From Gnetum montanum (Eukaryota; Plantae; Gnetophyta): a stretch of 64,000 bases of DNA. Positions 8,623 to 64,000 of the stretch are shown one piece after another; the stretch's first letter is position 1, and each line of letters starts with the position of its first letter. The translations under genes were made by a program, and so were the position numbers. Below the pieces are notes generated by a model. It searched no databases and was not told where the DNA came from. It worked only from the letters and a program-made list of their open reading frames with translations. Where the stretch lies: the NCBI GenBank assembly GCA_015680685.1, contig MNCI01002733.1, forward strand, positions 1-64,000, read 5' to 3'.

Positions 8623-8732
8623 GTAGGTTCACAGTGTGATTATATAGTTTCTGTTTTTGTCTTTATGAACTGGAATATGGCAACTTGGCGAATGTGTTGA
8701 TACGAAATTCATATTACGATTCCATACTTTAG

Positions 8733-9539: not shown

Positions 9540-9589
9540 CAAATATATGAGATGGAAGTTATATAGAAGGTCATCCCTTTAAATTATGT

Positions 9590-32791: not shown

Positions 32792-32797
32792 GTTTTA

Positions 32798-32815
32798 TGG
32801 TGCTCTAAGGAGGGC
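32798..32815 (+). promoter_or_regulatory. Putative PBS (tRNA-Asn type)
   Basis: TGGTGCTCTAAGGAGGGC vs TGGCGCTAGAAGGAGGGG (complement of the plant tRNA-Asn 3' end, from memory): 14/18. Confidence 0.55.
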
Positions 32816-36429: not shown

Positions 36430-36820
36430 AATGGCAAGGTAACTAGGGCTTATCTTTTTATCACCATACAAGTAGGCCAATATAAGGTGCATCAAGTGCA
36501 CGTAGATGATGGGGCTACAATTAATGTTATCCCATGCACTATCATGGAGTGCCTAGGCTTGATAGAGTAGATACAACATACAGTAATTGTAGCTCTCAAG
36601 TTCTTTAATAGATTATAGGTTGCTATCAAGGGGTAAATCTCCTTAGACTTTATGGCAGGGAAGTAATTCCCCATAACTATGTATTTCTTGGTGGTGGAGG
36701 AAATACTAGGATTCAACATTATCCTAGGAAAATTTTGGTTGGCTTAACTATAAGACATATTTTCATCCATTCATCAAGAGATTCACCTTCCTTATGAGGA
36801 AGGTGAAATCATCATTCATG
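36430..36820 (+). pseudogene. Tat/Ogre aspartic protease remnant
   Basis: VHQVHVDDGATINVIP and FNIILGKFW...SSIHQ (canonical LLLGRPW...STLHQ). Confidence 0.85.
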
Positions 36821-37349
36821 GTGATAACATGGTTTCCCTGGTGGTCAACAACATGAATATAGAGTAGGGGTCTAAAGTGGAGTTTTAGGAAGAATCTTCC
36901 GACCACAAAGTCAAGCAACCTAAGAGAGAAAAAAAAAGCCAAAGATGTTAACAATGGATGATGGGACATGATATGGGACAAACTTTCCTTTAACATCATT
37001 AGTAAAGGAAATGGTGAGGATAGACTAGTGTAGAATAGGCCTTATACATTTCCTAATCTTTCCAAGATTAGGAAAAACTTGCATAGGTGATGTACATCCT
37101 TGATCCTTCCACCCCATGCCCTTATGACAATGTAACCATATGTATTAATAGCCTTTTAGCCTAAATTTTCTTTGTTGACCTATTGTGCCTTTTTATACAT
37201 TTTATTTTAATTTTTTAATCCATGTAGCTTAGGGATTTACTTTTATTTACATTTGTATTTATTAAAGCCTTTTCCTTCAAAACTAGAAAACCGATAAAAA
37301 ATTTAAAATAGAAAATCACCAAAAATATAAGTTTCCTTTCAACATGGAC

Positions 37350-37500
37350 CCATCATGGCCTAAAAATAGCAAAACCCATAGCCTATCTAGGCCTTAAACT
37401 AGTGTCATGATCTACTAAGACCTTAAACTAGCACTGCAGCCTATCATGACCTTAAACCAGTGATAAACATACAACCCACCATGGACTAAAACTAGCAAGC
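37350..37500 (+). repeat. ~28-bp subrepeat array (ATGGCCYACYAAGGCCTTAAACTAGTAGC-like)
   Basis: The same unit, in the same orientation, recurs at ~46310-46350, ~46615-46680 and ~49540-49770. Confidence 0.8.
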
Positions 37501-40800: not shown

Positions 40801-41600
40801 CTCTAATGCTCTTTGGGGTCACCCACTAGCTGTGTGTTATTTTGGTAGCTGCACACTTCTTGTAAATAAGGTTAAATGTGTTAGTGTATTCATTAAAGCC
40901 TCCTCTTAACTATTCATATATAATAATTCTAATCTTGGAGCCTTTGGTAAACTCAATGTAGTTTGGGCCATCATCAAGATTTAATCATTCCTGATCAAGC
41001 CTTGATCATTAACCCTATACTTGCAAGATGTGTGTAAAATCGATAAGTTAGGAAAGGTGACCAAACTAGTAAAGCCAAGACATTAAAAACTTGTAATAAC
41101 TATGCTTACCCTTGTAGGAAATACATGTTGCCTAGAGGATTCTAGAACAAGTTGTGAACTATATGCACCATAATCAAAGTATTATCAACATTGTACTAAG
41201 AATACTCTAGCATCCTCTAGATGTCCAAAAGATAACATGTACCAACTGTGTCCTTAGTCTTCATTGACTATTCTGTTGCCTAGGTTTCTAGATCATCAGT
41301 TATGAACCTAGTGATAAGTCTCATAAACCTAGGTTGCAAGGTCTCCACTATAAGCCTAGCCATATCTACAAATAAGTATGACCATAGTATCACACTAAAG
41401 TCCTATAAGATGTAGGTAAGGAATTCCTTTGCCTCTGGTCAAAACCATAGTGAGGCCCTCTCTAGGACCATGTCAAGCAAAGGGGTGTTTGCCTTAGTTT
41501 GGCTTATGTAACATAGGATGCTAACTAGCTCAACCATGATGAATACGGGTTTTAGAAAGGCCCTTCATGGGAAAACAAGAACACCATTAAGATGATGTCT
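37830..41600 (-). pseudogene. Multi-exon cargo gene copy A: NIF/FCP1-like HAD domain + PMD-like domain + charged tail
   Basis: Exon ~41561-41110 reads AFLKPVFIMVELVSIL...F*PEAKEFLTYIL*DFSVILWS...YNVDNTLIM...NPLGNMYFLQG|gtaagc. Further exons start at 41020 and span 40612-39570, with more to ~37830. Homologous to 57990-61170. Confidence 0.8.
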
Positions 41601-43499
41601 CCACACTTAGAATTTCTTAACAAATTTTACAAAACATCTTAGTTGGGGGTGAAATTACCTTTCCTAAAAAAACTCTAAGGTTTTTGTTAAGATTTATTAA
41701 GAAATCCAACAACAACATTTTTACATCCCTCGTAGCCTTCACACATCATAGCCAAAACCATGCCTTAGTCAAAAACGACATTTTCAAAAATAGCTTTAAA
41801 ACCTCAAAAACCACCATAGGAAGATGCTTACTAAAAATAGTAAAAAATTTGTAGTTTTTTGGAAACTAAATTTAGAACATTGCCAACATGATAACACTAC
41901 CCATCTCCAAGGGCATCTTCAAGAACATGGGACATTGATAAGAAAAGTTTCTAAGCATGTCAACACTACCCATATCCAAGGGGTAAAGCTGATACAACCA
42001 TGACAAAGCCTAATTTACACAGTTGAGATGAAAGATTCAGAAAAAAATTCATTACAAATCTAATTTTAGTGATTCCATCATTAAAAGAATCCTAAAACCA
42101 TAAAATTTTTAGCCATAACTAGAGGAAGCCAAAACCACTAGACATTTTTGAACAAAATGTAGCCAAATTCACATAAACATAGTTGTTACCATAAACCTCC
42201 TTTGAGGTAGGATTAGGAAATTTTTTTTTAAAACTATGTTTAAACTCCAAACAAGGTAATTCCACCATTGTTTGAAAGCTTAAATTAAGCCCTACATATC
42301 TAGAGCCATAGAAAATTTAAAATCCTTTTCATTTCTCAAAAAAAAAATAAAATAAAATAAATAAATTCATAAGCTTTCATAAAATTTGAAAAATGGCACA
42401 AACCCTAACTACACAACCTAATCAAAACGATCATAACCTATCCATATCAACTCCAAAATGAATGAGATCATAGCCAATAGAAACCTTACACCTAACACTA
42501 AAGACTCATAACCTTATATTTTTACAACTCATAACCTTTTATTTGTAAACATTTGTACAAATAGGGTTGCTTTTATGACAAGAAACATTAAAAAACACAT
42601 AAAATTTACAAGACCTATTTTTTAACTCACATTTAAAAAATCCAAAAAATGAAACAACCTTAGGGAGGCATAAAGACCATGAAAATACCATGTAGTATTT
42701 AGTTGAAATAAAATTTTACTAGAATCTCTAACCTAGATCTAAGAAAAACATCTACATCATCAAATTGGCAAGAAAAGCACATGAGAATGATAAATTTAAT
42801 TTTAGAAACTAAATAAAATAAATCCTAGATGATTGAATGACCTTGGATCTATGTATAAATAGGTAAAATATGAGGTGGAATTTCCTTAGAATTTAATTTT
42901 ATCAACCTCCTTAGTGTAAGTCTAAGAGAAAATAGCCTCTCTCCTAGCTAGGAGAACATAAGAAAAAAATAACTAGGAAATTATAGAAAATGGATAAGAA
43001 TGACCTACCTTGGCATAAGTGAGGATGATGATTGGATTGAAACTAGCCTAAGTAGTTGGGAGATTCCATGTGCAGCTTCATCTACCTCTTGGATTCTTTT
43101 GCTTTTACTACTACCTCCATGTTTCTTCATGATTGCTTCACCAACATTGAAGAAGTTTGGAAATTTAAAGGGTTGAAGCCTTTACATTACCTAGGGAGGA
43201 AGATCTATGCACACATGCTAAGAATGAGAAGTATTTTGTAGCAAGAACCTTTGCTAGAGCCCTCCTCCAATGCACTATATGCTAGGATTGGAGTTGTGAT
43301 AAATTTTTGCAACACTTTAGCATTAAAATATGGATTAAAACATAGACACCTCCTCCCTTAACCCCATTGCCAATTTTGTGCACTGGAAATTAAGGTGCAC
43401 TAAAGTGCATAGGGGGGACTCTCTTCTCTCCATTGGAACTATGTTCAAATGTTTGAATTTTGGATAGTGGACCCCACCATATGTCCCCCATGCATGGTG

Positions 43500-46240
43500 T
43501 TGCAAGTTTGGAAACTCCATCAACGCTAGGGTTTTAACCTCTTAGAACATCTATAATTATGTTTAAGCCTTATCCCCATTGCATCTATGCTAGGTAGTGT
43601 GGATACGAGTATCCCTTACCTCACAATGCTCCCATACTAATCCCCTTGCCATTTTTAGTAGCAATGACCTATCCCATCAAGTGCCAAACTCTAAAAAGGA
43701 GTTAAATCTTAATGAAACCTACCACTTTGGGCATCCATGTTAGGGCAACACTGCCTAATGTGGACCAAATAGGGTAACATCCATACTTGCCCCCAGTGCC
43801 CATCAAGCCTAAATATGACCCCCAGAGTGGGCCCACATGATGTAGAACCCCTCTAGTTACCCCCTAACAACCCCAAAACCTCATCAAACCTAGTTGAAAC
43901 TGCTCAAAACTTTTGGATTTGGTGGATCCATGCTAGGGGATGCCTCATATATTTTTCCCAATGTGGATGGGTGGGGGATAATCAAAACTATCAAAATCGA
44001 CTGCCTAGTTATCATATTTTAATTTCAACACTCCTTGGTAGCCTCTGGTAATCTAGATTTGCTAAAAATAACTCAATTTTTCATACCTACATCTATCTCC
44101 ATGCTATTGAATCCCCCCTCCCTCACATCACTTTACATGGAGCTAGCATTGAGGCTTAGGGGATATGCCATAAAACCATTTTAGAAGTCTCAAATCATTA
44201 GAAAGTTCACTTTGATAGCCCTAGTGTCCCTCCATGACCTCCAATAGTTGATAGTTGCTAAAACTTAAGTAGATTTCCATCCCTGAAGCCTTCTCCACAC
44301 TAGTGAACCCTGCCTCCACATTGCCTAGCATGGAGCTAACATGGATGCCCTAGGAATATGCAATATAACCTACTCTATAGCTAGAAATAACCTAATAACC
44401 TACTCTAGTGACTTCTAGATCCAATTGGAGCTTGCCAAAGCCTTCATATGCCTCAAACCTAAACAAAATTAGTAGGAAAACCATCATTCCCCTCCCAGCC
44501 ATGCTAGGGTCACCTTGTCCAACATGGAGAAAAGGGGGAATGACTGCATGGACACTTAGGAGCCTTCAAACTAATTAATTTCAATGTCAAATTTTAACCC
44601 TTGATCCCTTGCAATCCTAACAACTTCAAAACCCTATTAAATCTTGTCAAAAGTGGTCCAAAACTTGAAGCCAAGTTGATCCATGTAGGGGGACATCCTA
44701 TCCATGCTAGCCAACATTAAGCCAATATGAATGGAAGGGGAGATAACCAAAGTTTCAAAAATTTGCCAAAAATTAACTTTTATTGATAACCTAGCCATAT
44801 TAGATGATCTAATAGCTAAAATATTTCAAAAAATGATCCTATATCATAATTTTTCTAGCTTCTATGCTGAGCCCCTACCTCCCTCTTCCACGCTAGCTAA
44901 CATGGATGCAACTAGGAAGGTTCATGGAGGATTATAAATACACTAAAATGATGTCAAATTACCCTGTACTTATCCTACAATGCTATCAACCCTTATAGAA
45001 GCCACTAGACCTTGTGAAATCAACCTAAATTAGGAAAAAACCCAATCCCCTAAGGTCCTTCACACTAATTTCATGCTGGCTAGTGTGGAACTAGTATGGA
45101 ACTAGGGGGTAACTGATAAAACAACCTAGGGACCCTACAAACTATCTAGTTTTGATCCTAAACCTTAGCCCTAAACACTGATGACCCTAGGACCTAATAT
45201 GCATGATTGATTGTGGTCAAAGTTGGCCTAGATTTAATATTTTTGTTCTATCCATGCTAGGCATCACCTCATCCATCTTGGGTAGTGTGAAGCTAATGTG
45301 GATGAGTTTCCTTTCCTTCTTCGATAGTAGATTAACATCCTAGGAGTCCAAAAACCTACACTGGCAAAGCCTAGAATCCCAAAGCCTTGAGATTGCACTC
45401 ATTTGACCTTGATTTAGTTACTAAAATCCATCAACTCCTCTCCTTCACACTGGAGCAACATTGCCTAGTATGGATCAAGGGGGTGTGATCATGCATGACC
45501 TTAAATATCCTCTAAACCTAGCCAAAATCAATCAAAAACTTGGAATATCATAGTATATAGCCTTATAAGTCTAGAAACTTGGTTAATGTGCACCTAAGAC
45601 CATCTTAAAGACAAAAAGCAAGGGCACCCCCTTTACTCCATGCTAGCTAGTGTGGATCTAGCATGGAGACTATCCCAAGCTTGTTTTAGCACTCAAAACC
45701 CTATCCAAATGGCCTCAAAACCTAGTTAGAAGGTACATAACTATAAGATCTTAATTTTAAATACCCATCCAATCCTATTTAATCCTATTTTGATCAAATT
45801 TGAATCCTCTATGTTGAGTCCCCTTCCATCCACACTGGCTTGTATGGAGACAAGTGGTGTAACTTTAAGACCTACTTTTTGACCATCTTCAGCCTTCAAA
45901 ATGATCAGTTTTGATAGATCTAGCCCTATGTTACCTTGGGAAGGCATTGGAATCTAGAAATTGATCCTTTGAATGTCATGTAACATACTTTCATTGGCCT
46001 CGACATTGGCCAATGTGGATTCAATATGGAAGACACTTTTAGGATTTAATGGGGGGTTCCAAGGGTTGAGCATGATGCTAAAACTAGTCCACTTCCTTTC
46101 CTAGTCAACTACGATGACATGCAAGAATTTGGGAATTGAAAATTATCCAAGATGAGCCTGAAAACCATCTAGATGTTTCATCCACACTAGGGATCACCCC
46201 ATCCATGTTGGCCAACATTGGTCTAGCATGGATAGCATGA
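43500..46240. repeat. Dispersed array of a decayed TCCACGCTGG / CCAGCGTGGA motif, often as inverted pairs
   Basis: Examples: TCCACATTGCCTAGCATGGAGCTAACATGGA ~44315, TCCACGCTAGCTAACATGGA ~44887, TCCATGCTAGCTAGTGTGGATCTAGCATGGA ~45637, TCCACACTGGCTTGTATGGA ~45829. Confidence 0.75.
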
Positions 46241-47149
46241 AAACCTTGCTGTTTTAGCCCAAACAGCCTCCAAATAGCCTTGGTTAATGCCTAAAATATT
46301 CTATAATCCTTTTAGCCTAAAATAATGGCCCACTAAGGTCTAAAAATAGCAAAATCTAGCCATTTTTTTATCATGTGTTGGCCAAGATTTATAATATGTA
46401 TTTTGCTTTATCTTATGTGACATTGTCTCATCATATTATGACCTATTTTGATCATTGTTGCATTGTTGTCCTTGTTTACCTTTAATACTACTTCTATTTC
46501 AATGTTTTTTCCTTTATTCTCTACATTATAGCATTGTATAACCTTTTTTAGCCTTTAATTGGTATTGAATGATGGGGTTTGGCCCTTCTTGGCCACCATT
46601 TGGAACCATGTGACAATGGCCCACTAAGGCCTAAAACTAGCATCATGGCCCACCAAGGCCTTAAACTAGCAAGCTTATGACCTTAGTTGACCTTGTTTTA
46701 CCTTATTATACTTGTTTAATGGCCTTTTTTTAGTCCTCATTTCATCTTATTTCTCTCTTTCCATCTCTTATAGCCTTATATGACCTTGTTCACCTTTTGT
46801 TTGCATTCTATATCATAGATTTGCATAATTTTACAACATTTTGATATTATTTACTCATCTTTACTTAGGTGCCACTTAATGTGCTTATGGTTGACATGTA
46901 ATATTGAAGTATGAATACCTAGGAGTAGATCAATTTTTATTTAAGCCTCAGTGGGCCTTACAGTGCTGTTGAATGGTGTATTGACCCTAATTACCTAGAT
47001 CTTGAGCTTAAAAGTCTTATCGACAACATAGACTCGATAGGAAAACCTCTAGAATGGCCTAAAAACCTAGTTAAAACCCTTGACCTAGAGGTTGATGACA
47101 TTACTAAAGACTCTCTCATTGAGGTTCTTGTCACAACACACAGTGGTGA

Positions 47150-48600
47150 GGAAAAAACCCTAAAACTAAATTCCTCATTGGAACCTTAATAGGCTCAAGA
47201 CATCACCAATGTTCTACAAGATAATATCAAGGCCTTCACTTCATCATATGAAGATATGCGAAGCCTACACCTATGCCTAGTATAAAACAACATCATACTT
47301 GATACTAGCTATAGACCAATTAAGCAAAAATTTCTCAAGATTAGACCTAATTTGGCCTTGGTAGTCTATAATAAAATCACAAAACTCTACAAAGCTAGTT
47401 TCATTAGGGCTATTGACTATGCAGAATGGGTATCCAACATAGTGGTAGTTCCTAAAAGAAATGGAAGTATCAACATTTGCATAAGTTTCTAAGATCTAAA
47501 TAAGGAAACCATCAAGCATAACTTTCCTTTGCATACTATTGATCAACTTATCAATACCATGATCAAGCATGCCTTGTTGTCCTTTATGGATGGGTTCTTA
47601 GGATATAACCAGTTTAGGATCAACCAAGAACATCAACTTAGCATGACCTTCATGATCCCTTTTAGTAACTTTTTCTATACCATGATGCCCTTTGGCCTTA
47701 AAAATGTAGGGGCAACCTAGCAACAAGCCATGATGTATATCTTTAGTGATTACATGCTAGGTTTTCTCGACAATTACATAGACGATATAGCTATTAAGTC
47801 TAAAGTGACCAATAACCATGCTAATGACCTTGATCTTGTATTTAAATGATGCCTCAAGTATGAGCTTAGGCTCAATCCTAAGAAGTGTATCTTTGATGTC
47901 AAGATTGATAAGATGCTTAGCTTTGTAGTATTTAAAGTAGGGATACGTGCCGATCATGATAAGGTTAGGACCATGTTCAACTTGGTAGCACCTACTAACC
48001 TTAAGAAGCTTTAGGGACTACAAGGCATATTACAATTTATTTGTAGGTTTATCACTAGGCTTATGGATAAATTACAATCCATGCAACATTTGCTTAAGAA
48101 AGGAGTTTACGATGAGTGGAAAACTCAATGTCAAGAAATCTCTAAAAACCTTAAGCAAGAGTTGGCACAACTACTGATAGTCTATCCTCCACAAGAAGGT
48201 AAGCCTTTTTACATATACCTTGATATCTCTAACACATCCATTGCCTCTCTACTTTGTCAAAAATGTGATGATGGAGTATAGATGCCAATGTACTACCTGA
48301 GCCATGTATTAGCTACCCATGAAACCCAATACACTAAAGTGGAGAAGCATTTTCTAGCACTAGTCTTCTCATTGAAGAAGTGGAGACACTACCTCTTTAG
48401 GAACCAAGTCAACATCATTTATAAAGGTAACATACTTATAGCCATAATAACCAATATTTATAAGAGTAGTAGTATAGCTGAATGGAAAGCCATAACCGTA
48501 GAGTTTGACCTTCATTACATCTCTCAATACTCAACGAAGAGTTAACCCATAGTAGTACAACTCACTATTTCACTTGTTGATGACTAAGCAACTATAGATC
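47150..48600 (+). pseudogene. Gypsy RT and RNase H remnant (Tat/Ogre type)
   Basis: YAEWVSNIVVVPKRNG, LSFMDGFLGYNQ, MPFGLKNVGAT, NYIDDIAIKS, PFYIYLDIS and YYLSHVL...YTKVEKHFLALVF. Confidence 0.95.
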
Positions 48601-48659
48601 TTGAGTTTCCCGATCAACATGTCAACACTGTTAGCCAATTAAGTTACATACTACTTAGA

Positions 48660-49520
48660 TAACTTGGCCATTTCAATGATGGGGGTTGGATATCATTGGA
48701 TAGATAATGTCTAAGTCTTCTATGGGTCATAGATTCATCATCACCACAACCAAATACTTTACAAATTAGGTTGAAGCTATTCCCCTAAGAAAGACAACAT
48801 CTAAACAAGTTTGTGAATTTATACCAGATAACATTGTAGCTCGTTTTGACATTCCTATGATCATGGACATAGATAATGGACCATAATCTAGTAGTAAAGA
48901 AACAAAGGATTTTTGTCATCACTTGGAAATTAAGCACTCTTTCTTGTCATATTACCTTCAAGCCAATGATCAAGTAGAAGCAAGTAATAAGGCCATTACA
49001 AATTTTCTTGAGAAAATGCTAAGCAATAGTAAACATAAGTGGCATGGGTGAATTGTCCATGCACTTTAGGCTTATTGAACAACATATCATATCACAAAAA
49101 GTGTAATTCCTTATAGCTTGGTTTATGGTTCTGAAGTTCTTTTACCTCTTGAATTGTAGGTTCCATTACTCTGAGTAGTCCTATTCAATTTCATCAATGA
49201 TGAACATACTAAGAAGTTGTATATCATGGACTTGCACTCAGTGGAAGAGCAACGTGTACAAACACTTGCTCATATCAAGTAGTATTAAGAGAGGCAAAAG
49301 TGACAACACAACCATAACTTGACTAAGCATAAGATGAAGGAAGGTGACTTGGTCCTCGAGGCCATTTGTGAGCATGTGGAAAATTTCTTAGCTAACTAGG
49401 AAGGACCTTTCTTGGTCACCAAATCCTACAGCAATAGTGCATTCAAAATAGTAGACATGGATGAAAATGAGTTATCCAATTTAATCAGTCAATCTTATCT
49501 AAATCCTTACTACATATAGC
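48660..49520 (+). pseudogene. Gypsy integrase core and GPF region remnant
   Basis: KYFTN*VEAIPL, IVARFDIP..MDIDNGP, QANDQVEASNK, PYSLVYGSEVLLPLE and N*EGPFLV. Confidence 0.93.
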
Positions 49521-49539
49521 CAATAGCCAACAATGATGA

Positions 49540-49770
49540 CCTGTCAAGGCCTTCAACTGGTAAGATGGCCTACCATGACCTAAAACTAGTGAAACCATGG
49601 CTTGTTAGGGCCTTAAAGTAGCATCACAACCCGCTGAGGTCTTAAATGGATAATAATGCTTGCTAAGGCCTTAAAATGGTAGCATAGTCTACTAAGACTT
49701 CAAACTAGTAACACAGCCTGCTAAGGCCTTAAACTAGTATCATGACCCATCATGGCCTTAAACTGGTAAT
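49540..49770 (+). repeat. ~28-bp subrepeat array after the integrase
   Basis: Repeated CTAAGGCCTTAAACTAGTA units, same family as at 37350 and 46615. Confidence 0.85.
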
Positions 49771-50269: not shown

Positions 50270-53200
50270 AAACTTTCTTTGACCATGAAACACAAATTAA
50301 GGTTTCAACCTACAAACAAAATGGGAACCAAAGTTTGTACAGAAGCACATGCCCGAGAGATTTTCTTTCCCACATGGTGATTATAGATAACCCCACAACC
50401 AATTGTACTATCATAGGGAGACTTATTACTAACCTCAACATTGTCATCAACCATAGTCATGGGGGAGACCATCATCAAATTATCCCTATCCTTCCTATCC
50501 ACCGAAACTGCACAAATATTATGTTCAACACCTTATTTTTCCAACTAATTCTATGTCCTCTACTTCAAATCACCACTCTCACTCTCTTGATTATGATCAA
50601 CCCATGACATCCCTTGAGGGATCACCACCTCATGCCTCTTACCATCCATCCTACCCTTGATATTCTCATACTCCACCTCATCACATGCCATCGCCAACAA
50701 CACTGAAAGGTTTGACACCACACTATCCAAAAACAAGTGGTACTTGTGCTGTGAATATGCATAGAAATGTTGATACTAGTAGGTTCCCACCACAAGCTTG
50801 GAAACATCCTTTCTTTAGGTAAGGCCATAGGTAGGAGCAAAACACTCATGAATCGACCACATCGTCTAAACTAGCATAATGCCAATTTGGTGCAATGCCT
50901 TCCTTTTCATCACCATTTTCCTCTAATCCTACATAAGGGTCACCATCCATTGTTACACCAATTACAAACCTAAGTAATGAATCTACAAGCATGGGGAGAC
51001 CAACAAATCCATGCATACAATATCATGATCAAGGATGCAATCGTGGGCTAGACATCCATCATGTTACCACACCTCATAGCCTAACCCACCATACATTTAA
51101 TAGTTAAGTGTGTGACCAACAATTTTTCTACCTAGCCACTACAACATCAAAAGAAATCTAGTGGTTGAGGTAGGCATATAGCAAGGATAACAAAACATAC
51201 AATGAATTGACTCTAGAAGAGATGACCTATTTCAAGATAGGGACATATCACCTCTCCCCCACCAAGGGGCTCAATAGGATCTCCAAATATGTGGCTAGGG
51301 GAAGTGCCATACTAATGGGTAAATAAATGAACAATCTTCCTGAATTATATTGCATAGAAATTCAAATATGGTTTAAAGAGAAGAAGGTAAGGAAGCCAAC
51401 ACTTCCATTCCCTTGCCTAATGCAAAAATCCTAGGGTACATAAATGACATTCTCACGAAGGCTTAAAATACATTCCTCACTAAATTACTTAAACTAGTAG
51501 CATCAAGGAAAGACCTTGGTGAAGAATTAGAACTAAAGAAGGAAGAAAAATCGAAAAATGAAGTAGAATAGGAACTTGAATAGTGCCACAAAAAATAGGT
51601 TCCACCAACATTGACATAAGACTATAGGTTGGCATTGAGCCACTTACAGAAAATTACTAAAACACTTAGTTGGAAAGGTAGAGAAGAATCTAGCCTCTTC
51701 AGAGTCATTGACAACATCATGTAGTCCACTATTTCAACAGATCCAACAAGAGGATAGATCTTACTATAATCATGAGGAGAATCCTAGTGGTCATGTCAAA
51801 TCTATGGTAACTCTACATCCTTCTAGGTAATGCTTGAAATAAGTGAAGGTGCCATGGTAGTGGTCATGCAACATCAGGATGCAATGGGTGCAATAGAGGT
51901 GATAATAGATCATATTAAAGAGTCTTTCAATGTGCCTATTATCCCTTTAGTTAATTTGATGGGGACCAAAGATGTGTAGATGGCTGTTGGGACTTCAATG
52001 ACTCATGAAGCATGTTAGATGGACTACTCCAAATGGGACAAGTAATGATCACCTTATTTGACATCCTCAATGATGTCACTACAACATAGTCAGACCTCAT
52101 AGCCACCTAGGGAAAGATAGTCATGGTTGAGATTAGGGAAGAACATGTAGATGTTGAAGTGCAATGTTTGCAATAAGAGCTAACCACCCTAAGAGTTGAG
52201 AGATAGGACCTTATCCAATTTATTACACCTAACTAGCTAAATTCATTTAAAATAGAGTAGCTAAACAATTTAATTAAGGGGAATAAAGCTACCAAATTTG
52301 AAAAGGAGAAGGTGGTTTGGAATTCCTTTGCTATTGATGCATAGTCTTATGCTCACAAGAAGGCATTGACTATCATGCAAGAAGAAAATAAATAGCTTGC
52401 TATAGAGAACTCATAGTTGACAACTATTAAAAAATAAAAGAATGTTCTAGAAGAAAGTGTCTATTAGTTAGGAAAACAACTAATGGGGGTCAAACAAGAT
52501 ATTAGCAAATTGGCTAGAGAAAATATAATCCTCTCAATGCAAGAGGTCCACGCCATTCAACAAAAGTTTGCAATTGAAATGAGCTTGTGGCAGAATAAGG
52601 CAAGAAACATAAAAAGCTAAAAGAACACTTTCGGGACCAAGTAGGCATGTACAAGTAGATAAATGAAAAGGAAATCTAGATGGATAAAGCTCACATTAGG
52701 TTCATGTTAGCATAGAATCCTAATTGTCAGACAATTCTGGATAGTTATGCACTAGTCCATTAGGTAGAAGTGAAGAACAAAGGCCTATAGACCAATAATT
52801 TGAAAGAATACATGGCATTGCCTAATCTCAAATATTCCAAACTTTCCATGTTAATAGCAAGTTAGCTTGGAAGCGAGCTAGAGAAATAGGTAGTGCCCAC
52901 TTACGCATTATACAAAAAAGAGTTTGCAGACAAAAAAGCTATTTTGCAAAAACTTCATGTTTCAAACTAAGAAATTTAGGTGGTTAAAGTTCATTACCAT
53001 GGATAGAAGGATGTCACTTTACACTAGGCCAAGAGACTCATAGATTATCATGAGTTCAAAGAAAAGGCTAGGACATTTGAAGAGGAGCGTTGACAATTTG
53101 CAACTTGGAACGTGAAGGCCAACAAAATGTTTCTACAACTGCCCTATCCTTGGGATGTACCAACACCAACACACATTAATTCAATAGCATAGATGGTACA

Positions 53201-54393
53201 TGATCCAAGAATGGAAGAAGAAAAGTTATAGCAACTCCTAAACTATTACAAATTTTAGAAGCCTAGTGACAAAGGGAAGCAATTGATGGAAGAGCCACCA
53301 CCTCCAAGAACTACATGAGCTTTCCTAATTTTGTGTCTTATAATATTATGTTCAAATGTTTTGTAAAACATCACTACACCATGTAAGATTCCATGTTTTT
53401 TTTTGCTTGTTTGAGTTAGTTAATAATTCCATACCTTCCCAACATTTTGTAAAGAACTTGTTCCTCATTTTTTTTAACTTGAGAATGAGTTTTCATTTAG
53501 TCGTGGGGGTATGATGTCTCATGATTTTGTCAACCCCAATATCGAATATTTGATATCGAGGCTTCGATATCAGATATGCGATATTAGGTCTTGAGAAATG
53601 ATGTCAGATATGCAATATCATCTCCTTCGTGCTAGCCTATAAATACAACACTTTGATGCATGGTTGGGGGATAGTTCTAGTTTTAGATTTTAGTTAGCGT
53701 TTTCATAGATTATTAATTTTTAGTCCTATTATTTTCCAATGCATCCCTGTAGTGTGATGTTTGTAGTCATATGACATTCTTATTGAAGTGTGATGTACTT
53801 GGATGTGTTACATCACTGGAAATAAAGATCGAGGTTACCCCCATCATTGCAACATCCACTTAGATTTATTATTGATTGAATTTTTTAATTATTTATTATT
53901 TTATTTAGTTAATGTTTCCATTTATTACTAGTTACTATTCTTTTCATTAAGCAAAATGAGTACGAATTATCACGAGTACTTAAGTGTAATTACTGGATAA
54001 CATAGTAGTTAATCATTTGGCAAGCCCAGTGACGTACGCTTGGCAATCCCAGTGGTAGTTATATGAAGTCCAAGGTGTGTACAAATGATTTAGGATGGAT
54101 ACTCATCAAATGTAGGCTAGTTTAGATCCTATTTTCCATTTTCTAACTTAATCAATTAATCTCTTTATCATGATTAGGAGCAGCATAGGATTAGACGACA
54201 TCATCTTATGTCTCACTTTGGACTAAACCATATGTGACAAAGCTACCAGTTGTCCAAGTGGGAAGATAACGAACTATGATTAGAGCATAATGATTTAGAT
54301 GTAGAACTACTCCCATCCATAGAACTCAACTAGATCATGCATGAATGTTTCTAATTCATATGGTTGGATGTAGGGGTACCTCACCGCTCATCA
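50270..54393 (+). mobile_element. Athila-like remnant C (post-gag region, decayed coiled-coil ORF, PPT, 3' LTR)
   Basis: ~50330-51270 is an inverted homologue of ~16790-17770. GAGAATGAGTTTTCATTTAGTCGTGGGGGTA|TGATG at ~53481-53516. Confidence 0.8.
53512..54393 (+). repeat. 3' LTR of element C
   Basis: TGATG...CTCATCA termini, CCTATAAATA at ~53636, and a right end that is the reverse complement of ~13336-13520. Confidence 0.88.
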
Positions 54394-54959
54394 ATTACTT
54401 AATATTTCATTAGGTATCATTTTTAGATGATATTTTGATTATCAAACTATTTAGAATATTTTTTTAAGGTAGGATAATAATTAAGGATTTCTTTGGAAGT
54501 TTGGAACAATACCTCTAGGCTAGCTTATAGTGCTTTCAATGTTGACTATATGCACAAGGTAGCTATAGTCTCATAGTTTTGGTTTGGATATTTGTAGATG
54601 AGGACTTGACGTCATTAATTATTATAATGATTTGTAAAGAGCATTGATTGAAAAAATGTTTAGATGCTTCTTTTAAAAAAACCTAAAAATGATAATGGTT
54701 AGAATTCTAATAATTTTTTTCACTATCTTCTTTTTCCTAAGACATTTCTACTTTTAGTTCTCTAGTTATTATGGTGTAAGCTTAGTAAGTATTAGAATTA
54801 CAACTGTATTACAATTTTAGAAGATATACTTAAGCATATTAGCCCATGGTAGCTTTCTTTTAATGAACCAATTTGAGCTACTAATTCATCTAGATTTTGT
54901 AACACTTTGAAAACTACAGTTTCCTATGTATAATAAATGGTTATTATTCTATTATTCAG

Positions 54960-55351
54960 TTCATAATAAAGGAATATCTCCATCTATTATAATACATAAT
55001 TATATAATTGCATCTCTGCACAAAGCTTCACTGCACATACATGTTATAGAGTTATGTGAAGATGTATTTAACAATGAAGGTCTCAAACCTAATGGATTTA
55101 CTTTCTCTATCTTAATAGATTCATACAACAAAGAAGATAGACCAAAGAAATCCCTAAAATTTTTTGAAGAAATGAGAAGTCAAGGTTTTATTCCCAATGA
55201 AAATACATACAATATAGTTATAAATTTGGCAATCAAACTAGACATGCCAGAATATGCCTTGAGACTTTTTAATGACATGCAATCACATAATGTCTTGCTA
55301 AGGATAATAAAAGAAAATCCAAGCAACTTTAATTCAATTTTAAAATGCTAA
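54960..55351 (+). CDS. Pentatricopeptide repeat (P-type PPR) exon or gene fragment, about 3 motifs
   Basis: GLKPNGFTFSILIDSYNKEDRPKKSLKFFEEMRSQGFIPNENTYNIVINLAIKLDMPEYALRLFNDM. Candidate acceptor ATTATTCAG|T at 54959. No other exons identified, so it may be a pseudogene. Confidence 0.7.
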
Positions 55352-55359
55352 TCAATAAA

Positions 55360-56069
55360 ATTAAATATGTTCAAAGTTTTTACACAATTGTATATAGAAA
55401 AAATTTGTTGAATCAAGCATGATTTTTATTTGAATAACCATGATTTTTTAATTTATGATTATTTCAAAGAGATCTGAATTTGCAAAATAGTCATTTCCAC
55501 TTTATCACATAGTTCCTATTGCACATAGCCTCATATATTAATTAAGGGACTTTAGGATAGATAGTTACATTTCATTTAAACCATAGTTTTCTAATTTAGT
55601 GATAAATTGCTGATTTAACAATTAGTGGCCAGATCAGAAATTTTTTGCCCTCAACCTAAATTGATTCAACATGACTTTTATAATAAACCTTATTTTTAGA
55701 AAGAAATCAATAGATTTAGGTATATTTTTGTAACCTTTAAATATAATTTAGCCTGACTTACCAATTTATCATGATTCTTGAAACATGTTAATTTGACTTA
55801 TTTTCTAACTATTTAAACATTACTTTAAACTTATCCAATCCTAGAAAACACTCACTCACTTCCAACTCATCACAAAGTTCTTATTAAATATGTTCAAAGT
55901 TGTTACACAATTGTATATAGCAAAACTTTTTTGAATCAAGTGTGAATTTTACTTGAATTTTCAAGATTTTTTAATTTATGATTATTTCAAAGCCATCTAA
56001 ATTTGCAAAATGCTCATTTCCACTTTATCACATAGCTCCTATTACTCATAGTCTCATATATTAATTAAG
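55360..56069. repeat. ~187-bp diverged direct repeat (55360-55546, 55883-56069)
   Basis: ATTAAATATGTTCAAAG...TCATATATTAATTAAG occurs twice. Confidence 0.9.
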
Positions 56070-56882
56070 AATAATAAGAAATGAAAAAAAAATTAATAAG
56101 AATAATTTATTTTCAGCCTATTCGACTATGTTGCTACCAACAAGGATAGTGAAAGCCTTGAATCTTAACATGGAAGACTTGAGTGTTAAGCCATGTGGGT
56201 TGACTAATGAATCCCAAAGTTGGCGGGGTATGGCTACATTATTTTATATTTTAGCCTCAGTAAGTTGCCTCTTCACTTTCAAATATGAGCATGCCAATTT
56301 GGCATAGAAGGGGGACCCCCTTTTCATTTTGAAGAGGGTTGAAAACTTTAATTTTAAGCTTATGGCTTGAAGGTTGCAATAGAGGCTATTTCTCCTTTCT
56401 CTTACTCTTGTCCTGTGGTTGCCTAATCAAGTTTTGGACATTATAACTTTTATTTTAAGCTTATGTCTATAATTAATATCTATGATTATGTTGGCTAGCT
56501 TTCATAAAATTAGAAGAATATGCTAAAAGCACAATGGCTACCATTAAGGTGTCTAGAGTTGGAGAATACTTTAAATAGTTCTATTAATATTTTAACAACT
56601 TGAACATTTATAACTATGTCCTTTATAATGATAATTGATAACATAAAAACTTTAAAAAATAATTAAATACTACTCATAGCCTATGAAACTACTCCACTCT
56701 ATATATATATCAATTGGCCTTGAAAAAAAGATAGAGCAAACTTGATTGAGAGGGTAAAACTAAATTTGGTAAGTGGTAGAAAAATAGAGGGATGAGTGAT
56801 TCTATTTTTAGTTATCTTGTTACCTCATCTAGTAGTTGAGCTTGGTTAACATCTTCTTCTTTAAAATCATCTTGGAGAATTG

Positions 56883-56907
56883 ATATATATATATATATAT
56901 ATATATA
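56883..56907. repeat. (TA)n microsatellite
   Basis: Directly visible. It is followed by ATATGCTACCCCATA repeats at ~56927 and ~56988. Confidence 0.95.
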
Positions 56908-57989
56908 TTTAAGCTAGTGTATGTCCATATGCTACCCCATACACTATGTAGCATATGGAATAAAAAATAGTATTTTTTATGTGTCTATATGCTACCCCAT
57001 ATGGAATTTGATTTTTAGTGTATGGAATCAAAAATAAAAATTTCCATGTGTCACATGTTGCCACATGCTACAAAGTGTGTGGACTTCGATTTTAGCATGT
57101 GAGTAGAAAATAGAAGCTTGTATACAAATTATGTACCCAAATGCATAAGGAGTTGCACAAACAGAGCTTGAAGCTTGTTAAAGTTGGCAAGTTGTGTTTT
57201 GTAGTCAACCTCATGATCCAGGTACTTCCCAACATTGATTTCCAAAACCCCTTGCTAGTTTGCAAGTTGGAATTGTATTTTTGCAAACTAGTTTTTTCAT
57301 ATTATTTTATAGTGGTTTTAGATTATCATGTGAATTTTCCTAGGTCTAAAATTACAACATTAATGTCAAAGTTTTGTTAAATTTCATGTATGTGTAATAG
57401 CTAGACTTAGAAATTTTTTTTACTAAAATATTATCATTTTATTTTTGCATGTGAATTACACTACACAGTTGCAATTTTAGCTGTTGAAATTGCTAAGGTT
57501 GTCCAAGTAGCATTGGTCCACTTTTGGTATCTTGTTATGCATGGTTTAGGTTATTAGTGGTTATTTACATGTTTTATTTTGATTTTCAATAGTATTTTGA
57601 ATATTTTGAAATTTTTTATCTAGCTTTCCTAAAGTTTTACTACAACTATTTCATCATAAACTAGGATTTCTAGTTAAAATCCCATCAAATTCGAGTTGGA
57701 ATTTTGTAATTGTTGTTGTGGGTTAAATTTCAATACAAGATAATTCTCATGGTTTATTTATTTTTTGAACATAAAATTTCTACAATTTTTATGTATATTT
57801 CCACCGTGAGATTTCCATCAATGTTAATGGACTATTTTTTTCTTAATTTTTTGGTTAAATTCTGCAATGGTTTTGATTTTTGAAATTTGAAAATCTCATT
57901 GTGTGGTTTTGTATGAAAATTTTAACATCATGCTCATAATTTTTGTTTAATAGTTGTGTAATTTTTCATTATGGTCACATGAGGTTCTA

Positions 57990-60900
57990 ATGGTCATCTT
58001 TGAGTTATGCAAGGCTTTCTTAAAGCCAATCTTCGTGGTAATTAATCTAGTTGGCCTATTGTGATGCATCCATATACTAGAACCCAACACTCCACCTCTC
58101 AATATGATCTTAGACCATAGTTCTCTCTAGTTTAGACCAGGGCCAAGGATTTCCTAGCCTTTTTGCTTCAACACTTTAGTGTGATCATATGGTCATACTT
58201 GGCATTAGATACTGATGCTATCATCGTGGAGACCTTGCTACCCCATTTTGCTATCTTGATCATCAAATTCATAGTTGATGATCTTAACATTGGTGTGGAA
58301 GATGAAGAATTTGATGGCATGTACACCACAGGCACATGTAAGTTATCTAGAATCTGGGATATGCCTGAGTTCATTCAATACAATGCCAACAATATGTTAA
58401 TGATGGATCACTGAGTCCACACTTTATTCTGAAATCCTCTTGACACTTTCTACCATCTAGAAGGGTAAGTGAAATTCTAAGTTTTTGGTTCATCTCTTAG
58501 TTTCACTAAGAAACTTAGATTTAACAATTTTTGTTTGGGTTTAAATGCTTGTAGGTATAGGATAGATGACTAAGATTTGATCAAGAGTAATCAAATCTTA
58601 CCCTTGGCCCACACCACACTAGAGGTCTTTCCCAAAAGCCAAGTAGTGAGGCTTATGTTCATGAAGCAACTCAAGGATGACTTTGACAGGTATACCTCAT
58701 GTTACTCTCAGGCCTACTATAGGTGCCTAACAAATGGGATAACTCATATTTTGTAGGGTATCCCAGATTTTGGTATACATGCACATATACCTCTTAGGAT
58801 CTTGATGTTGCCTTCATCAAATAAGCAAATAATTTTTATTTTTATTTTTTATACAATGTCAATTTTTTTTGGTTATGTAGTTCAATTATCTAGGCTTTAC
58901 TTGTTTGACTAGTTTTATCGATATGGATACAAGCTTTGCTTAATGTTATGTATATGTCAAAGTTGATGGGTGTTTTTCTTTATGTTTTAGGGGCTACGCC
59001 AACATCCATTGTTACCACGATTGTTTCATGATATGTAGAAGAGACACTTATCCTCAAGTTTGGTGAGGTGGATTCAGCACAACATGAGTTGGCTAGCCAA
59101 GCACCTAGCCCAACTAGGAAAGGATTGCTAGTGTAGGTTTTCTTGATTTATTTATGGCTCCTAGCCCAACCATACCTACCCTTGAGATGATGAATGTCAT
59201 TGACTCCTTTAATGAAGGAGTCAAAAAATTCATCACTCATGTTCATGGTGTACCTATCACTTTGGCTGTTAACAAATCTACCCTCAATAACCTCTTTAAT
59301 ATCACTTGTCAGGGTATGAAGGTTGCCCATAAAATAGGGAAAGAGGTGGAAGAATGGTTGACACACATTGCAATCACATTGGATCACCTCTAGACTAGTG
59401 TCAAGCCATCAAGGTTAATGAGATGTTCCCATTGTTTCAATCCTCGACATTCCTCACATTGTTGTCATAAAAGAAGATACTAGGCATTTGATAGCATGGA
59501 CCATGAAGAATATCCTCACTAAGGATGCTCAATTCAATTGAATAGCTCACTTGGTTTTTAGGCTATGAGAGGAGATCCTGAAACTTCAGAACAACCTTGA
59601 GATGATATGACATTTACATTTTGAATTTTTGTACGATATGCAAGGGGGTTCATAGAGTTGTTAGTGGTGAAGAAGAATGGATGATGGGTAAGCCATGATC
59701 CATCCCAATTTTTTAAACCTTGGATTAAACACATTGTTCAAACTATGTAGGTTCAAAACCCACCTATTGAGGATGTTGGGGAATCATTATCTATTACCAC
59801 TAAGAATTTTAGTGGTATGTATTGTCCTTCCCTTGACACCATGAGGGTTGAACCCCAAGTTGCTCATAAGAATGATTAAAAGACTGAGTTATGTGATGAG
59901 GCTAATGGTGTAGCTAAAGCAAAGTTAAAGAGGCTTATGAATGAGGAGATAGCACTAGTTGTTGAGCAACTTTTCATGAAGAAACTCTTCATCAGACTTG
60001 GTCAAGCATAACATATGGTTATGGGTATGTTCCATTTTCATTCATGTTTAAGTTATTTTTGCATCTATGTTTTATGTTATATAGTCATGTTTTTCTTTTG
60101 TTCTAGATAAAATATGCTAACTTGTTCTATGTTTTTTCTTCACTATTCTTGTCGGTAAACAAAAATAATGGATACCATAGGTAGTTGTAGTAGAGGAAAA
60201 AAAAACCTAGAGGAGATGGCACTATAATGGCATGAGGATGAGGAGCTATCCAATGCCACATTAGATGAAATTGATGCCATTATTGAAGGCTCATAGTTAG
60301 GTAAACCTCTTGTTGTTATCCAAGATGATCTTCTAGGTACTTATGAATTTTGTTTCATATGTTGCATTTTGTATTTTCACATTCGAACTTGGTTTTAATC
60401 ATTAGTTGATGGTTACGCCCATTGTAGTGCCTAAACCTCAACTAGATGCTCCAACCTCTATGGTTCACATGAAACCATGGGCAAAATTTCCTAACAAAAC
60501 TGAATTCATAAGTGACATGGTCAAAGACATGATTAATTGATTGCACCAAATTGTTCCCAATGTTGGTAAGAACCTTATCTTATTTTTCCTTTAGATGTTT
60601 TTATGGGTTATGCACTTCATTTCATATGGGTTTTATGGTTATATGATATTAGTAGTTTAAAGTGTTTTTGGTTATTTCATTATTTACTATTTTTGTGTAT
60701 ATTTTATTATATTGTTCACAATGTCCAAGGTTGGGTGGGATTCCAACTGTTCCATTGATATTCATGAACTACCCAAATTTCCACCTAAAGTGGAAAATGT
60801 TCCACAAAATTTATATGAAAGTACCACTAAATGTTGACTCTCATATGCCAAAACTTCGTGGGAATGTCAATGCTTCAATGAGTTCCTATGGGAGTGAGTT

Positions 60901-61170
60901 GTAGCATTGGAAAAGGAAAATAAAAAGTAGGCTAGGGAGATTAAAGACCTTAGGAATCACAAGGAGTTTGTGGAAGCCTAAGTGGCTTATAGAGACTATT
61001 TGCAAACTAAGAAGATATAATGATTATGGTATTGAAACACCATCCACAGCAAGGTTGCACTTGTCAGGTTCCTTATGAAACAAAAGTTACAGATGGACTT
61101 GTTGGCTTGTAAAGCCAAGGATTAAAGGGACTATTTGAAACACCACCAATATGCAAGTTAAAACCTTTTA
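57990..61170 (+). pseudogene. Multi-exon cargo gene copy B: NIF/FCP1-like HAD domain + PMD-like domain + charged tail
   Basis: Exon ~58014-58464 reads AFLKPIFVVINLVGLL...FRP-AKDFLAFLLQHFSVIIWS...KLSRIW...YNANNMLMMDH...NPLDTFYHLEG|gtaagt. Further exons at 58555-58689 and 58991-~60024, with more to ~61130. Homologous to copy A. Confidence 0.8.
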
Positions 61171-61174
61171 GCAC

Positions 61175-62460
61175 TATAACCTTCACCCCTACACTTGAGG
61201 GTACATGATCATTATAAAATGTAAGGTTTGTAGCCCATGAGCTACAATTTCACATACTTAAACTTTTGGGGCTGAAAAATGCCTCATAAGTCATCATAGC
61301 CTCACTTCCCAAGTGGACAAAGTCATGTCATGTCTATATTTGGGCTTGGAAAGTTTGAAAATGCCTTGGGAATTTCCAAATTTGGCATTTTCATGGGTTT
61401 TGTGGGGGTATAGCCTCAACTACACTAGAATCACCTACATCCAACATTGGTGGTGTTGGGTTCTCATTTTTCTAGCCATAACCCCCAGCGTTCATGATAT
61501 AAGGCTAGTGTTGAGGTTGTGGATATTTCTATTTTTCCACAAATCTAGCATTGAAGTGGTTGGGGATTTGGTTTCTTTAGAAGGCCAACATTCCTCCAAA
61601 ATTTCATCATGGATCCCATGGAGCCACCATGGATGGATGAATCTAGCATAGTTGGAAAAATACATTTACTATTTATAGTATCTACCATGGTTTTGATAGC
61701 CTTAGGAATATCAAAACTTATCATAAATGGATAACTACACTAGAGATTATGGCCTGCCACACCTAGAAATTGTATCAATCTATAAACAAACATGGCAGAA
61801 ATTTGCAACCAAAAACTAGAAATCCTATGACCTATAAATAAAGATTTTGAACACATTGAACATGTTCAAGAAATTGAAAAACATTGGAAATCTTAAGCAC
61901 TTGTAACCATTGTCTTTTGCAAGACTTTTAGTAAACTAGCAATTGGCTAAGCATTAGAAACTCTTAGAGTAATTGCCTAACATCAAAAAGTGAAGCACAT
62001 ACCTTACCCTCCCTTTGCAACCAACATTGCTAAAACCTTTTCCTCCTTGGAAATGAATAGTACACATACTTACCTCCTTAGCAACCAATGCTACACAAAT
62101 CATACACCCTTTGCAACCAATGTTGCATGTATCTTATCCTCTTGGAAACCAACAATGCATAAACCTTACCCACTTTGCAACCAATGTTAAACATACCTGA
62201 CCTTGTTGGAAGCCAACATAGTACCTTTGAAACCAATGTTGCAAAAGAATTATCCCCTAGTGACCAATGTTGAATATCTAAGCTACAAACATGCAAGGAT
62301 TTTTGGCATCTAAAGTTCCAAAGTACTTGGATTGTGAAGCTGACTTGAATACTTTGAACTTTATGCTTTGAAAATTTTCATTATTTTAATAAAGTTTTCA
62401 ATTCATTTATTATGCAAGTTCATTCCATGTTTAATGTCTAGGCTTTCTAAGGGCCTATGC
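61175..62460 (+). mobile_element. Tat-type LTR related to 31516-32791, with internal tandem repeats
   Basis: TATAACCTTC...GAAAAATGCCTCATAAGT...CCAAGTGGA matches ~31516-31690. CCTATAAATA at ~61831 and TTGCAACCAATG repeats at ~61990-62270. The right end is uncertain. Confidence 0.6.
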
Positions 62461-64000
62461 AACTCCTTTCTAAGATGCATGGTAGTTGAGCTCCAACGCC
62501 ATTCAACACCGACAAGTGTGGCTGATTTGATGATGACTATGAGAATCTAGGAGCTAGTGCAAGGGCTTAAGGTATGATGGAGTAGTAGTGGCATCATGGT
62601 CATAGGTGAATTAGTGGGAGGACACCATGTAATAGTAGTAGTAGGAGGGCAAGTGTAGGACATAGTAGTGATGACAGTGAGTAGTGACAAGTCGCCTGCA
62701 AATAAGATGTGGCTCAGGCCTATGAAACCCTTAGTGGGGGTTTACTATGTCAAGGAAATGGTGGATTGGTGATTTGTAGTGTGGTTTTTGCCTAGGTGGT
62801 GATGGGAAAACAATTTTTTCTAATGCATGAGGGTTTCAATAGATTTGGCACAACTTGGGGTAGATAGGACAGTGAGGCAGTGTAATGGAAATGGAATGCG
62901 TAGCAAGAAATAAGGAGAGGAGTGTAGTAGCATGGAGAGTGATCGGTGCGTGTGGTGGTGGGAAGGGCAGGTAGCTGGTGCATAAGGTGAATAGCAAGGC
63001 ATGTGGGAGGAGGCAGGCAATGTAGCAGTAAATAGGCAAAGCATGAAATAATAGTAGCTAAGGAGGCTTGCTCGATATAATGAGCTAATATTGGGGTTGT
63101 GCAGTCCTCGACGGGCTTATGTAAATGACAAGATGCTTTATTATAAAGGCATTCATGAGGATTAGCATAAAAGTAGTCTTTCTCTTTAGGTTTTTCTACA
63201 ATGGATCTTCTCTTTTTAGGTGTACTAATTCCTTCTCTCTACATTGCTTTGACAACATGAGCAAATTGCTCTCATATTGAGTAACCCAACTAGCTATGTT
63301 CAATTTAATAGTGACATCCTTGTAAATCCTAAATGCCTTTGGTGATCTTCTACAACTTTTGCCATATTACCATCATATGTAACAACAAAAATATTGCTTT
63401 CAATTAAAACTAGGTAGTCAAAGGCTACCATTTATGAGGAGTGGTTTTGAAACAAATATTTGTGCATCTTCTAGTTACAAGTCACTTGCCTATGTTTAGT
63501 TGGGCTAACATTTTAAATTTTAAATTTTTGGTACATAAATGGATGTCACTTTTGATATTATAGATTTTTTTTTGCATTGGCATTGTTTTGAGTTAGTGTT
63601 AGTCTAGGTTGTAATTATAAGATTCCTAATACATCCACAACATATTGTTTAGAAGTTGTTTCTTGTTTTATTCAACATGAGGATATTTGTAACATTCATG
63701 AGCCAATTTTGTGATTGTGGATTTAGTTTCAAGTTTTACTATCTGAAGATGATTTTTATATAGATATTTAGATAGTGTTCATGATAATTCTGAGAATTAT
63801 GTGAATTTTTTTTAAAATTTTTACATTATAGTTTTTTTATGTTTTTCTTTGTTTTATAGTTATGTTTTTATTTATCGAGGATACTAATAGTTTGTCTATT
63901 TTATTGGTTTACAAGCTTCTAGCTTCTAGAATAATATGATGGCTTAACAACATATCCCCTCTTTCTCCCATAGCTTAGTCTTGCTCGTAATGGACATGTT

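Follow-up and report, generated by a model that had tools for sequence, protein, structure and literature searches.

Antisense extra open reading frames (eORFs) are already known from Ty3 retrotransposons of the Tat lineage, examples being the PMD eORF of TatIII (3' end, gymnosperm lineage III; PMC4408406), the TRP28 ORFs of Retand (PMC11963269) and gene23 of Grande (PMC7264820). In Ogre elements, described from angiosperms, gag and protease are split from reverse transcriptase (RT), RNase H and integrase by a partly spliced non-coding gap of 274 bp on average (PMC6317226, PMC4408406). Here we describe two copies, A and B, of a multi-exon gene in positions 1 to 64,000 of contig MNCI01002733.1 from Gnetum montanum (GCA_015680685.1; this whole stretch is called the window). 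Both copies are dead, and the gene from which they derive evolved under purifying selection at the protein level. Copy A (41.6-38.0 kb, minus strand) lies antisense in a gap of about 10 kb between gag-/protease-like ORFs (34.4-36.9 kb) and an RT-RNase H-integrase region (46.95-49.5 kb). Copy B (58.0-61.1 kb, plus strand) aligns to it at about 58% identity across 3.3 kb. We consider it probable that the gene is an accessory gene of the surrounding element itself, which is likely an 'Ogre/Tat-like' Ty3 retrotransposon.

The gene would share with the Tat eORFs its character as a conserved antisense accessory gene in a large Ty3 element with internal tandem repeats, a presumed promoter of its own, a coiled-coil-like tail and the absence of a known function. 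It differs from them in position, since the eORFs are found between pol and the 3' long terminal repeat (LTR), or in sense orientation 5' of gag, whereas copy A sits between protease and RT. It also differs in structure: Tat eORFs are described as ORFs (the word 'intron' has 0 occurrences in the Retand paper, PMC11963269), whereas five or six introns and a NIF-like domain characterize the gene described here. The gene showed no PMD, Transposase_28 or Athila ORF1 domain (Pfam, exon 3, E up to 1), at a sensitivity lowered by decay. The gag-protease/RT gap recalls Ogre, as does a T-rich acceptor-like site before RT, for which no RNA joint was listed; unlike Ogre's gap, it extends over about 10 kb and has a gene inside it. 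A further parallel is the AlkB demethylase ORF captured by orchid Ty3 elements (PMC9289625), where a Tat-related family has retained an enzyme domain of host type as an additional gene. That ORF is recent and retains its catalytic residues, whereas the present gene looks catalytically altered and is old (dS 1.4), antisense and intron-rich. In the openly accessible literature, as far as its listings and passages show, no antisense gene located between protease and RT has several introns or a NIF domain, and the accessible supplementary text of PMC6317226 has no NIF term. We regard the gene as old, selected and probably spliced, probably an accessory gene, and unusual in its position and domain.

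Global alignment of the two copies gave the following map, in which the exon and intron boundaries were picked by eye.

Copy A, 43009-43130, minus strand: candidate first exon, from an ATG to a phase-2 GT donor; the copy B counterpart (donor 57222) is tentative
Copy A, 41563-43008, minus strand: candidate long first intron
Copy A, 41110-41562, minus strand: exon 1, NIF/FCP1-like HAD domain
Copy A, 41021-41109, minus strand: intron 1, 89 bp, phase 2, acceptor AA
Copy A, 40759-41020, minus strand: exon 2, one frameshift
Copy A, 40613-40758, minus strand: intron 2, 146 bp, phase 1, acceptor AA
Copy A, 39570-40612, minus strand: exon 3, 347 codons in a single frame with 12 stops
Copy A, 39461-39569, minus strand: intron 3, phase 0, GT..AG, the acceptor being the best in-frame candidate
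Copy A, 39178-39460, minus strand: exon 4, acidic
Copy A, 39086-39177, minus strand: intron 4, 92 bp, phase 1, donor AT
Copy A, 38948-39085, minus strand: exon 5
Copy A, 38828-38947, minus strand: intron 5, 120 bp, phase 1, GT..AG
Copy A, 37991-38827, minus strand: exon 6; the match to copy B reaches about 38420 and the extent beyond is uncertain
Copy B, 58013-58464, plus strand: exon 1, NIF/FCP1-like HAD domain, decayed, with frameshifts
Copy B, 58465-58554, plus strand: intron 1, 90 bp, phase 2, GT..AG
Copy B, 58555-58820, plus strand: exon 2
Copy B, 58821-58990, plus strand: intron 2, 170 bp, phase 1, donor AT, acceptor AG
Copy B, 58991-60014, plus strand: exon 3, large, without database match, 3' end approximate
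Copy B, 60015-60154, plus strand: probable intron 3, both ends unclear
Copy B, 60155-60336, plus strand: exon 4, acidic, start approximate
Copy B, 60337-60427, plus strand: intron 4, 91 bp, phase 1, GT..AG
Copy B, 60428-60565, plus strand: exon 5, 138 bp, gap-free against copy A
Copy B, 60566-60721, plus strand: intron 5, 156 bp, phase 1, acceptor AA
Copy B, 60722-61135, plus strand: exon 6, coiled-coil-like by inspection; homology to copy A ends where an LTR-like repeat starts

Four clear introns have the same codon position and phase in both copies. A preliminary description had placed the first-intron donors at one codon, and they indeed follow two bases of a Gly codon in each copy (A 41109, GTAAGC; B 58465, GTAAGT). 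It was likewise right about the intron lengths of 89 bp (A 41109-41021) and 90 bp (B 58465-58554), about the next exon opening with G-TAT-AGG in A and B alike, about the large exon starting 2 nt plus 17 codons ahead of TLILKFG (A 40612, B 58991), and about both copy A acceptors reading CAA. The second-intron donors are GTAAGA in A (40758) and ATAAGC in B (58821). A further two introns agree in place and phase (A 39177-39086 with B 60337-60427; A 38947-38828 with B 60566-60721), a fifth is probable (A 39569-39461 with B about 60015-60154, the B ends being unclear), and an upstream acceptor is common to both copies (A 41563, B 58012). For the candidate first exon, homology between A and B was not significant at the DNA level (flanks z -0.3). 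A 27-nt near-repeat (89%, E 0.02) of the copy A candidate first donor site (42987-43013) occurs on the same strand upstream of gag, at 33825-33849, maybe by chance.

Among the 16 splice dinucleotides of the four clear introns 11 are canonical, and the remaining 5 are all G-to-A changes. Such decay is expected, since CG and CHG are strongly depleted in both copies (observed/expected ratios 0.04-0.11 and 0.27-0.29). Every one of these sites is canonical in at least one copy, and the G-to-A change never affects the same site in both. It could be argued that the AT-rich interruptions are linkers between several short antisense ORFs and not spliced introns, since no spliced read was seen and the boundaries come from inspection. 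We regard this as very improbable: sites of the GT/AG type stand at aligned positions in both copies for all four introns, the frame continues across the joints in the same phase (copy A exon 2 needs one frameshift), and the interruptions are T-rich, with 38-54% T against 29-33% in exons. That the positions are common to A and B follows from common descent, so the evidence for function lies in the codon bias and the retained splice sites.

Codon-level comparison points to long-standing selection on the protein. Nonsynonymous divergence (dN) between the copies is 0.435 and synonymous divergence (dS) 1.40, giving a dN/dS of 0.31 (bootstrap 95% 0.22-0.40; 734 of 786 aligned codon pairs usable), with values of 0.22-0.38 in each of the six exons and identities of 0.61, 0.70 and 0.48 at the three codon positions. 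The five other frames gave 0.45-1.23, the lowest value belonging to the antisense shadow frame. The preliminary description had named two results that would speak against function, a dN/dS near 1 once methylation-prone sites were masked and equal divergence of exons and introns, and neither was found. With CG- and CHG-prone codons masked, dN/dS is 0.35 (0.27-0.46; 509 of 538 codons used), against 0.68 +/- 0.07 in a position-blind null whose minimum over 300 runs was 0.47. Transversions, tallied alone since deamination does not cause them, affect 24 of 108 four-fold but 169 of 1360 zero-fold sites (p 0.007). Seven hand-picked 90-nt exon windows aligned at z 6.1-16.2, whereas matched intron pairs reached a mean z of 2.1 and 20 mismatched pairs 0.6 +/- 1.1 (maximum 4.3). 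The introns, said earlier not to align visibly, are therefore close to noise without being wholly unalignable. Percent identity over aligned columns was not used to compare the introns, since shuffled sequences scored equally high.

Stops make up 32 of 856 codons (3.7%) in the exons of A and 28 of 801 in those of B, compared with 49 of 1379 (3.6%) in the flanking gag and pol (p 0.82), while six non-coding frames contain 5.8-9.8%. The stop density of gene A thus equals that of its neighbours, which suggests that the gene was open until about the death or insertion of the element. A simulation of decay, begun from sequence that was depleted beforehand, sets only an upper bound of about 0.3 per site on decay after insertion. 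Since each copy would have decayed neutrally after insertion, dN/dS on the active lineages should lie below the measured value.

Copies A and B belong to many-copy repeats. Logan contigs under two species labels, mostly less than 90% alike, fall on both loci (15,410 on 8 kb and 125,845 on 20 kb). Summed depth, which is not copy number and is taken here only to indicate numerous diverged copies and relative conservation, is 101-1945 over the copy B gene against 14-16 at 62.7-63.5 kb (run X1). The five exon-only bins of copy B lie at 740-1945, whereas five of its seven intron-overlapping bins fall below 500, the other two having 849 and 1178 (run X1). Such an excess of exon over intron depth among copies suggests continued constraint during amplification. 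In run X2 the summed depth is 292-2412 in all 14 bins from 37.0 to 46.3 kb, and 435-491 in the leader of the element (33.0-34.3 kb).

One could instead suppose that two host paralogues of the NIF family diverged under selection as ordinary genes, were captured separately as genomic DNA and were then passively amplified, so that the selection would predate capture. Capture of gene fragments by transposons is very common in gymnosperms (PMC13477047), and a pairwise dN/dS cannot date selection. Yet no relative of exon 3 turned up at E 0.001 in 1.84 billion representatives or in a profile search (0 of 7990), the agreement in stop density implies a frame open until about insertion, and the depth pattern suggests constraint while the copies were multiplying. 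No abundant RNA appeared at 80% likeness, a level at which a donor at about 58% would be missed. We consider this history quite improbable.

The element around copy A comprises the following features.

31472-33528, plus strand: candidate 5' LTR, TG..CA, followed by TGG at 33534 (candidate primer site)
34400-36870, plus strand: gag-like and protease-like decayed ORFs, without Pfam match
37344-37500, plus strand: 29-bp repeat array; the arrays that precede RT and follow integrase belong to its family
43500-46250, strand not assigned: non-coding spacer 5' of gene A, with 17 dispersed CCATGCTAG-like motif copies on both strands
46324-46672, plus strand: 29-bp repeat array before RT
46950-48500, plus strand: reverse transcriptase and RNase H (RVT_1 E 5.7e-12; RT_RNaseH_2 E 1.9e-23)
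48650-49504, plus strand: integrase core and tail (rve E 5.3e-10), the sequence just 5' apparently deleted in this copy
49536-49770, plus strand: 29-bp repeat array after integrase

RT, RNase H and integrase follow one another in that order on one strand, the arrangement of Ty3/gypsy elements. The 34400-36870 ORFs may be gag and protease, judging from their motifs, and the likely Ogre/Tat-like assignment is based on layout and motifs. A single family of 29-bp repeats, always in the same orientation, stands after protease, before RT and after integrase. Loose contig ends at 48635 in 184-187 contigs suggest that this copy is deleted just before the integrase core. No extra RNase H of the archaeal type, a feature of the Tat clade, was found in the plus frames of 35.5-38.0 and 48.4-50.35 kb or in six frames of 43.2-46.95 kb. 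A long T-rich tract ending in AG (46700-46870, plus strand) precedes RT and is a candidate sense-strand acceptor for a protease-to-RT splice. Elsewhere in the window, segments at 1663-7032 and 17604-23021 have a related inverted copy at about 50328-54400.

Multi-intron accessory genes such as TnpA and motif arrays on both strands are typical of CACTA elements, and TnpA- and VANC-type systems have spliced genes whose products bind motifs. The gene might therefore belong to a non-autonomous CACTA/EnSpm-like DNA transposon, with A nested in the protease-RT spacer and B a second insertion, in which case selection and splicing would be just as real. Two-gene layouts are described for EN/SPM, and TnpA of CACTA/EnSpm and VANC of MULEs are transposon accessory proteins in separate genes (PMC13547354), a likeness that extends to our gene. 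The multi-intron gene and the 2.7-kb spacer 5' of A, which holds 17 of the window's 42 near-copies of the 9-base motif, would fit this pattern, as would the left flank of B, where short two-strand repeats and a CACTA pentamer lie next to an AT microsatellite. Contig joints also skip 37.4-46.6 kb, and only one copy is seen in context. Against this, unlike in TnpA or VANC systems, we found here no sequence match, transposon termini or transposase: inverted termini are absent around A and B (z 0.2 each), and a CACTA terminus pattern, a 3-bp target duplication and TnpD were likewise not found, though ends could be lost or decayed beyond recognition; the spacer at 43500-46250 contains no Pfam domain and no transposase in six frames; and neither a transposase nor an inverted terminus was found beside copy B, including its right side. 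The motif array lies on one side of A only, and the depth of the spacer matches that of the element's leader. The skipping joints are probably artefacts of the repeats, given that their sides measure 21-28 nt and that similar joints connect the other repeat arrays. On balance a DNA transposon origin appears unlikely.

That the gene belongs to the retrotransposon instead is favoured by the common exon structure, the codon-level selection, the many-copy status, the position and orientation of A, and decay in step with the flanking ORFs. Several observations weigh against it. Only copy A is placed inside an element; copy B is cut on both sides, with no gag or pol adjoining, and no listed contig bridges the gene to protease or RT. 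The gag and protease ORFs have no Pfam match, and no 3' LTR matching the candidate 5' LTR was found within the window, because another element starts at 50.3 kb. Stops are scarcer in RT-RNase H (8 in 517 codons) than in gag, protease or integrase, which could mean that the element is chimeric (gag plus protease versus pol, p 0.076). No RNA splice joint is listed, and RNA depth over the gene is at most 1.7 (four runs, 2-26% of each read). The NIF profile matches described below stay under the curated thresholds, and the depth figures do not count copies. The preliminary description had seen a spliced, selected and functional cargo. Its interpretation is supported as regards protein-level selection, and splicing is indicated by splice signals and phase continuity, with no RNA joint listed; 'cargo' seems too weak a word, as the data fit a long-held accessory gene, the context being given by copy A only.

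The predicted product is about 1,000 aa long. Its short N-terminus would lead into a NIF/FCP1-like HAD domain, followed by about 430 aa without an assigned fold, an acidic linker and a tail resembling a coiled coil. With a stop-free 91-aa stretch of B exon 1 as query, 29 of 30 Atlas matches carried PF03031 (NIF; top 0.93, 192 of 256 features), Pfam gave NIF for copy A exon 1 at E 0.078, and a two-copy profile against the PDB had UBLCP1 first (E 0.22), with two stretches in order. Exon 1 resembles FCP1, SCP and UBLCP1 (NIF, PF03031) in the order and spacing of its motifs. HAD phosphatases have D-x-D-x-T as motif I. In both copies the catalytic motifs are altered at the same two positions: the second Asp of motif I is replaced by Val (motif I reads E/N-L-V-S/G-I/L) and the second Asp of the closing DD by His (V-H or D-H). 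These changes to Val and His are not products of deamination, so the domain is likely not a canonical phosphatase, and from its sequence it is likely a pseudo-phosphatase that has lost its catalytic residues. It further differs from FCP1, SCP and UBLCP1 in being fused to about 800 aa without match. The structure model of exon 1 was unusable, with a mean predicted local distance difference test (pLDDT) score of 38.9.

Searches for relatives were otherwise negative. Exon 1 against longer proteins gave 0 of 82 candidates and its profile 0 of 53; exon 3 had no Pfam family at E up to 1 and only chance-level PDB matches; an 86-aa piece of B exon 3 found no usable match in the Atlas (top 0.79); NCBIfam gave 0 for three proteins. 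None of 272 metagenome candidates and none of 37 viral ones was confirmed as a related locus, and a 23-base pattern was absent in both collections. A PMD- or Transposase_32-like nature of exon 3 was unsupported (probability of 0.1% for its profile against the window's Transposase_32-like ORFs), with sensitivity lowered by decay.

If the gene is the element's own, a promoter in the protease-RT gap would likely drive its transcription antisense to the genomic RNA, and the host would likely splice the resulting transcript. The introns would not be splice substrates in the genomic RNA and could be copied intact at each retrotransposition. The packaged RNA would contain them in reverse orientation, which may be why they survive reverse transcription; intron reporters work by the same logic (PMC12786077). 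The product could be a nuclear helper that binds phosphorylated host proteins, for example the tail of RNA polymerase II, and favours transcription of the element against silencing, possibly targeted by the motif array 5' of its own gene. We offer this anti-silencing role as a tentative hypothesis. A fuller scenario, which we find rather doubtful as a whole, is that a gymnosperm Ogre-like group kept a seven-exon antisense gene in the gap between gag-protease and RT until synonymous sites were nearly saturated, and that this gene encodes a NIF pseudo-phosphatase fused to a new domain. The protein would grip either a silencing factor or RNA polymerase II in its phosphorylated form, with the motif array of the element as its target. 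This would make it a retrotransposon counterpart of VANC-type anti-silencing, built like a spliced host gene whose introns reverse transcription could not remove.

Copy B is a fragment: its left limit lies close to an AT microsatellite, and at 61136 it is interrupted by a repeat matching the start of the candidate LTR.

61136-61450, plus strand: very high-depth repeat that starts with TG and resembles the sequence from 31472 on; it is likely an LTR that inserted into copy B

Further coding sequence at 61.2-61.45 kb was rejected, as the match to 31.47 kb starts sharply at TG and depth is 6,000-20,000; the comparison with the copy A tail gave z 2.1. At the left limit of copy B, contig depth is 12,000-26,000 over 56534-57067, flanking the AT microsatellite (56883-56908), and a 32-bp tandem repeat (3.8 copies, 62011-62264) lies in the sequence after the LTR-like start at 61136. 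The window also holds an open O-methyltransferase exon (7902-8474, plus strand; Pfam E 4.9e-19) with undepleted CG and CHG (observed/expected 1.32 and 1.01), probably part of a live host gene, with 305-bp and 52-bp tandem repeats (7029-7837) just 5' of it. A PPR-repeat ORF fragment (54911-55351, plus strand; PPR_2 E 1.5e-20) is followed by a 187-bp direct duplication (55360-55546 and 55883-56069). A short O-fucosyltransferase-like match at about 63335-63460 (minus strand; Pfam E 5.9e-06), with low depth and partial RNA reads, is possibly a scrap of a host gene.

Extra ORFs of plant LTR elements have been sought with ORF finders at cut-offs of 250 codons or 600 bp (PMC6317226, PMC11963269). Such finders overlook a gene divided by short introns or report it in pieces, and a review has called for a search for antisense and spliced transcripts (PMC7264820). 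If our reading is true, a backward orientation is enough for retrotransposons to preserve complete genes with introns over very long periods, and the number of accessory genes in giant gymnosperm genomes would be underestimated. The presence of conserved introns in a repeat would then not by itself indicate a DNA transposon or a host gene. Finally, a NIF-like module recurring in unrelated plant transposons, if true, would provide a testable handle on the function of accessory proteins.

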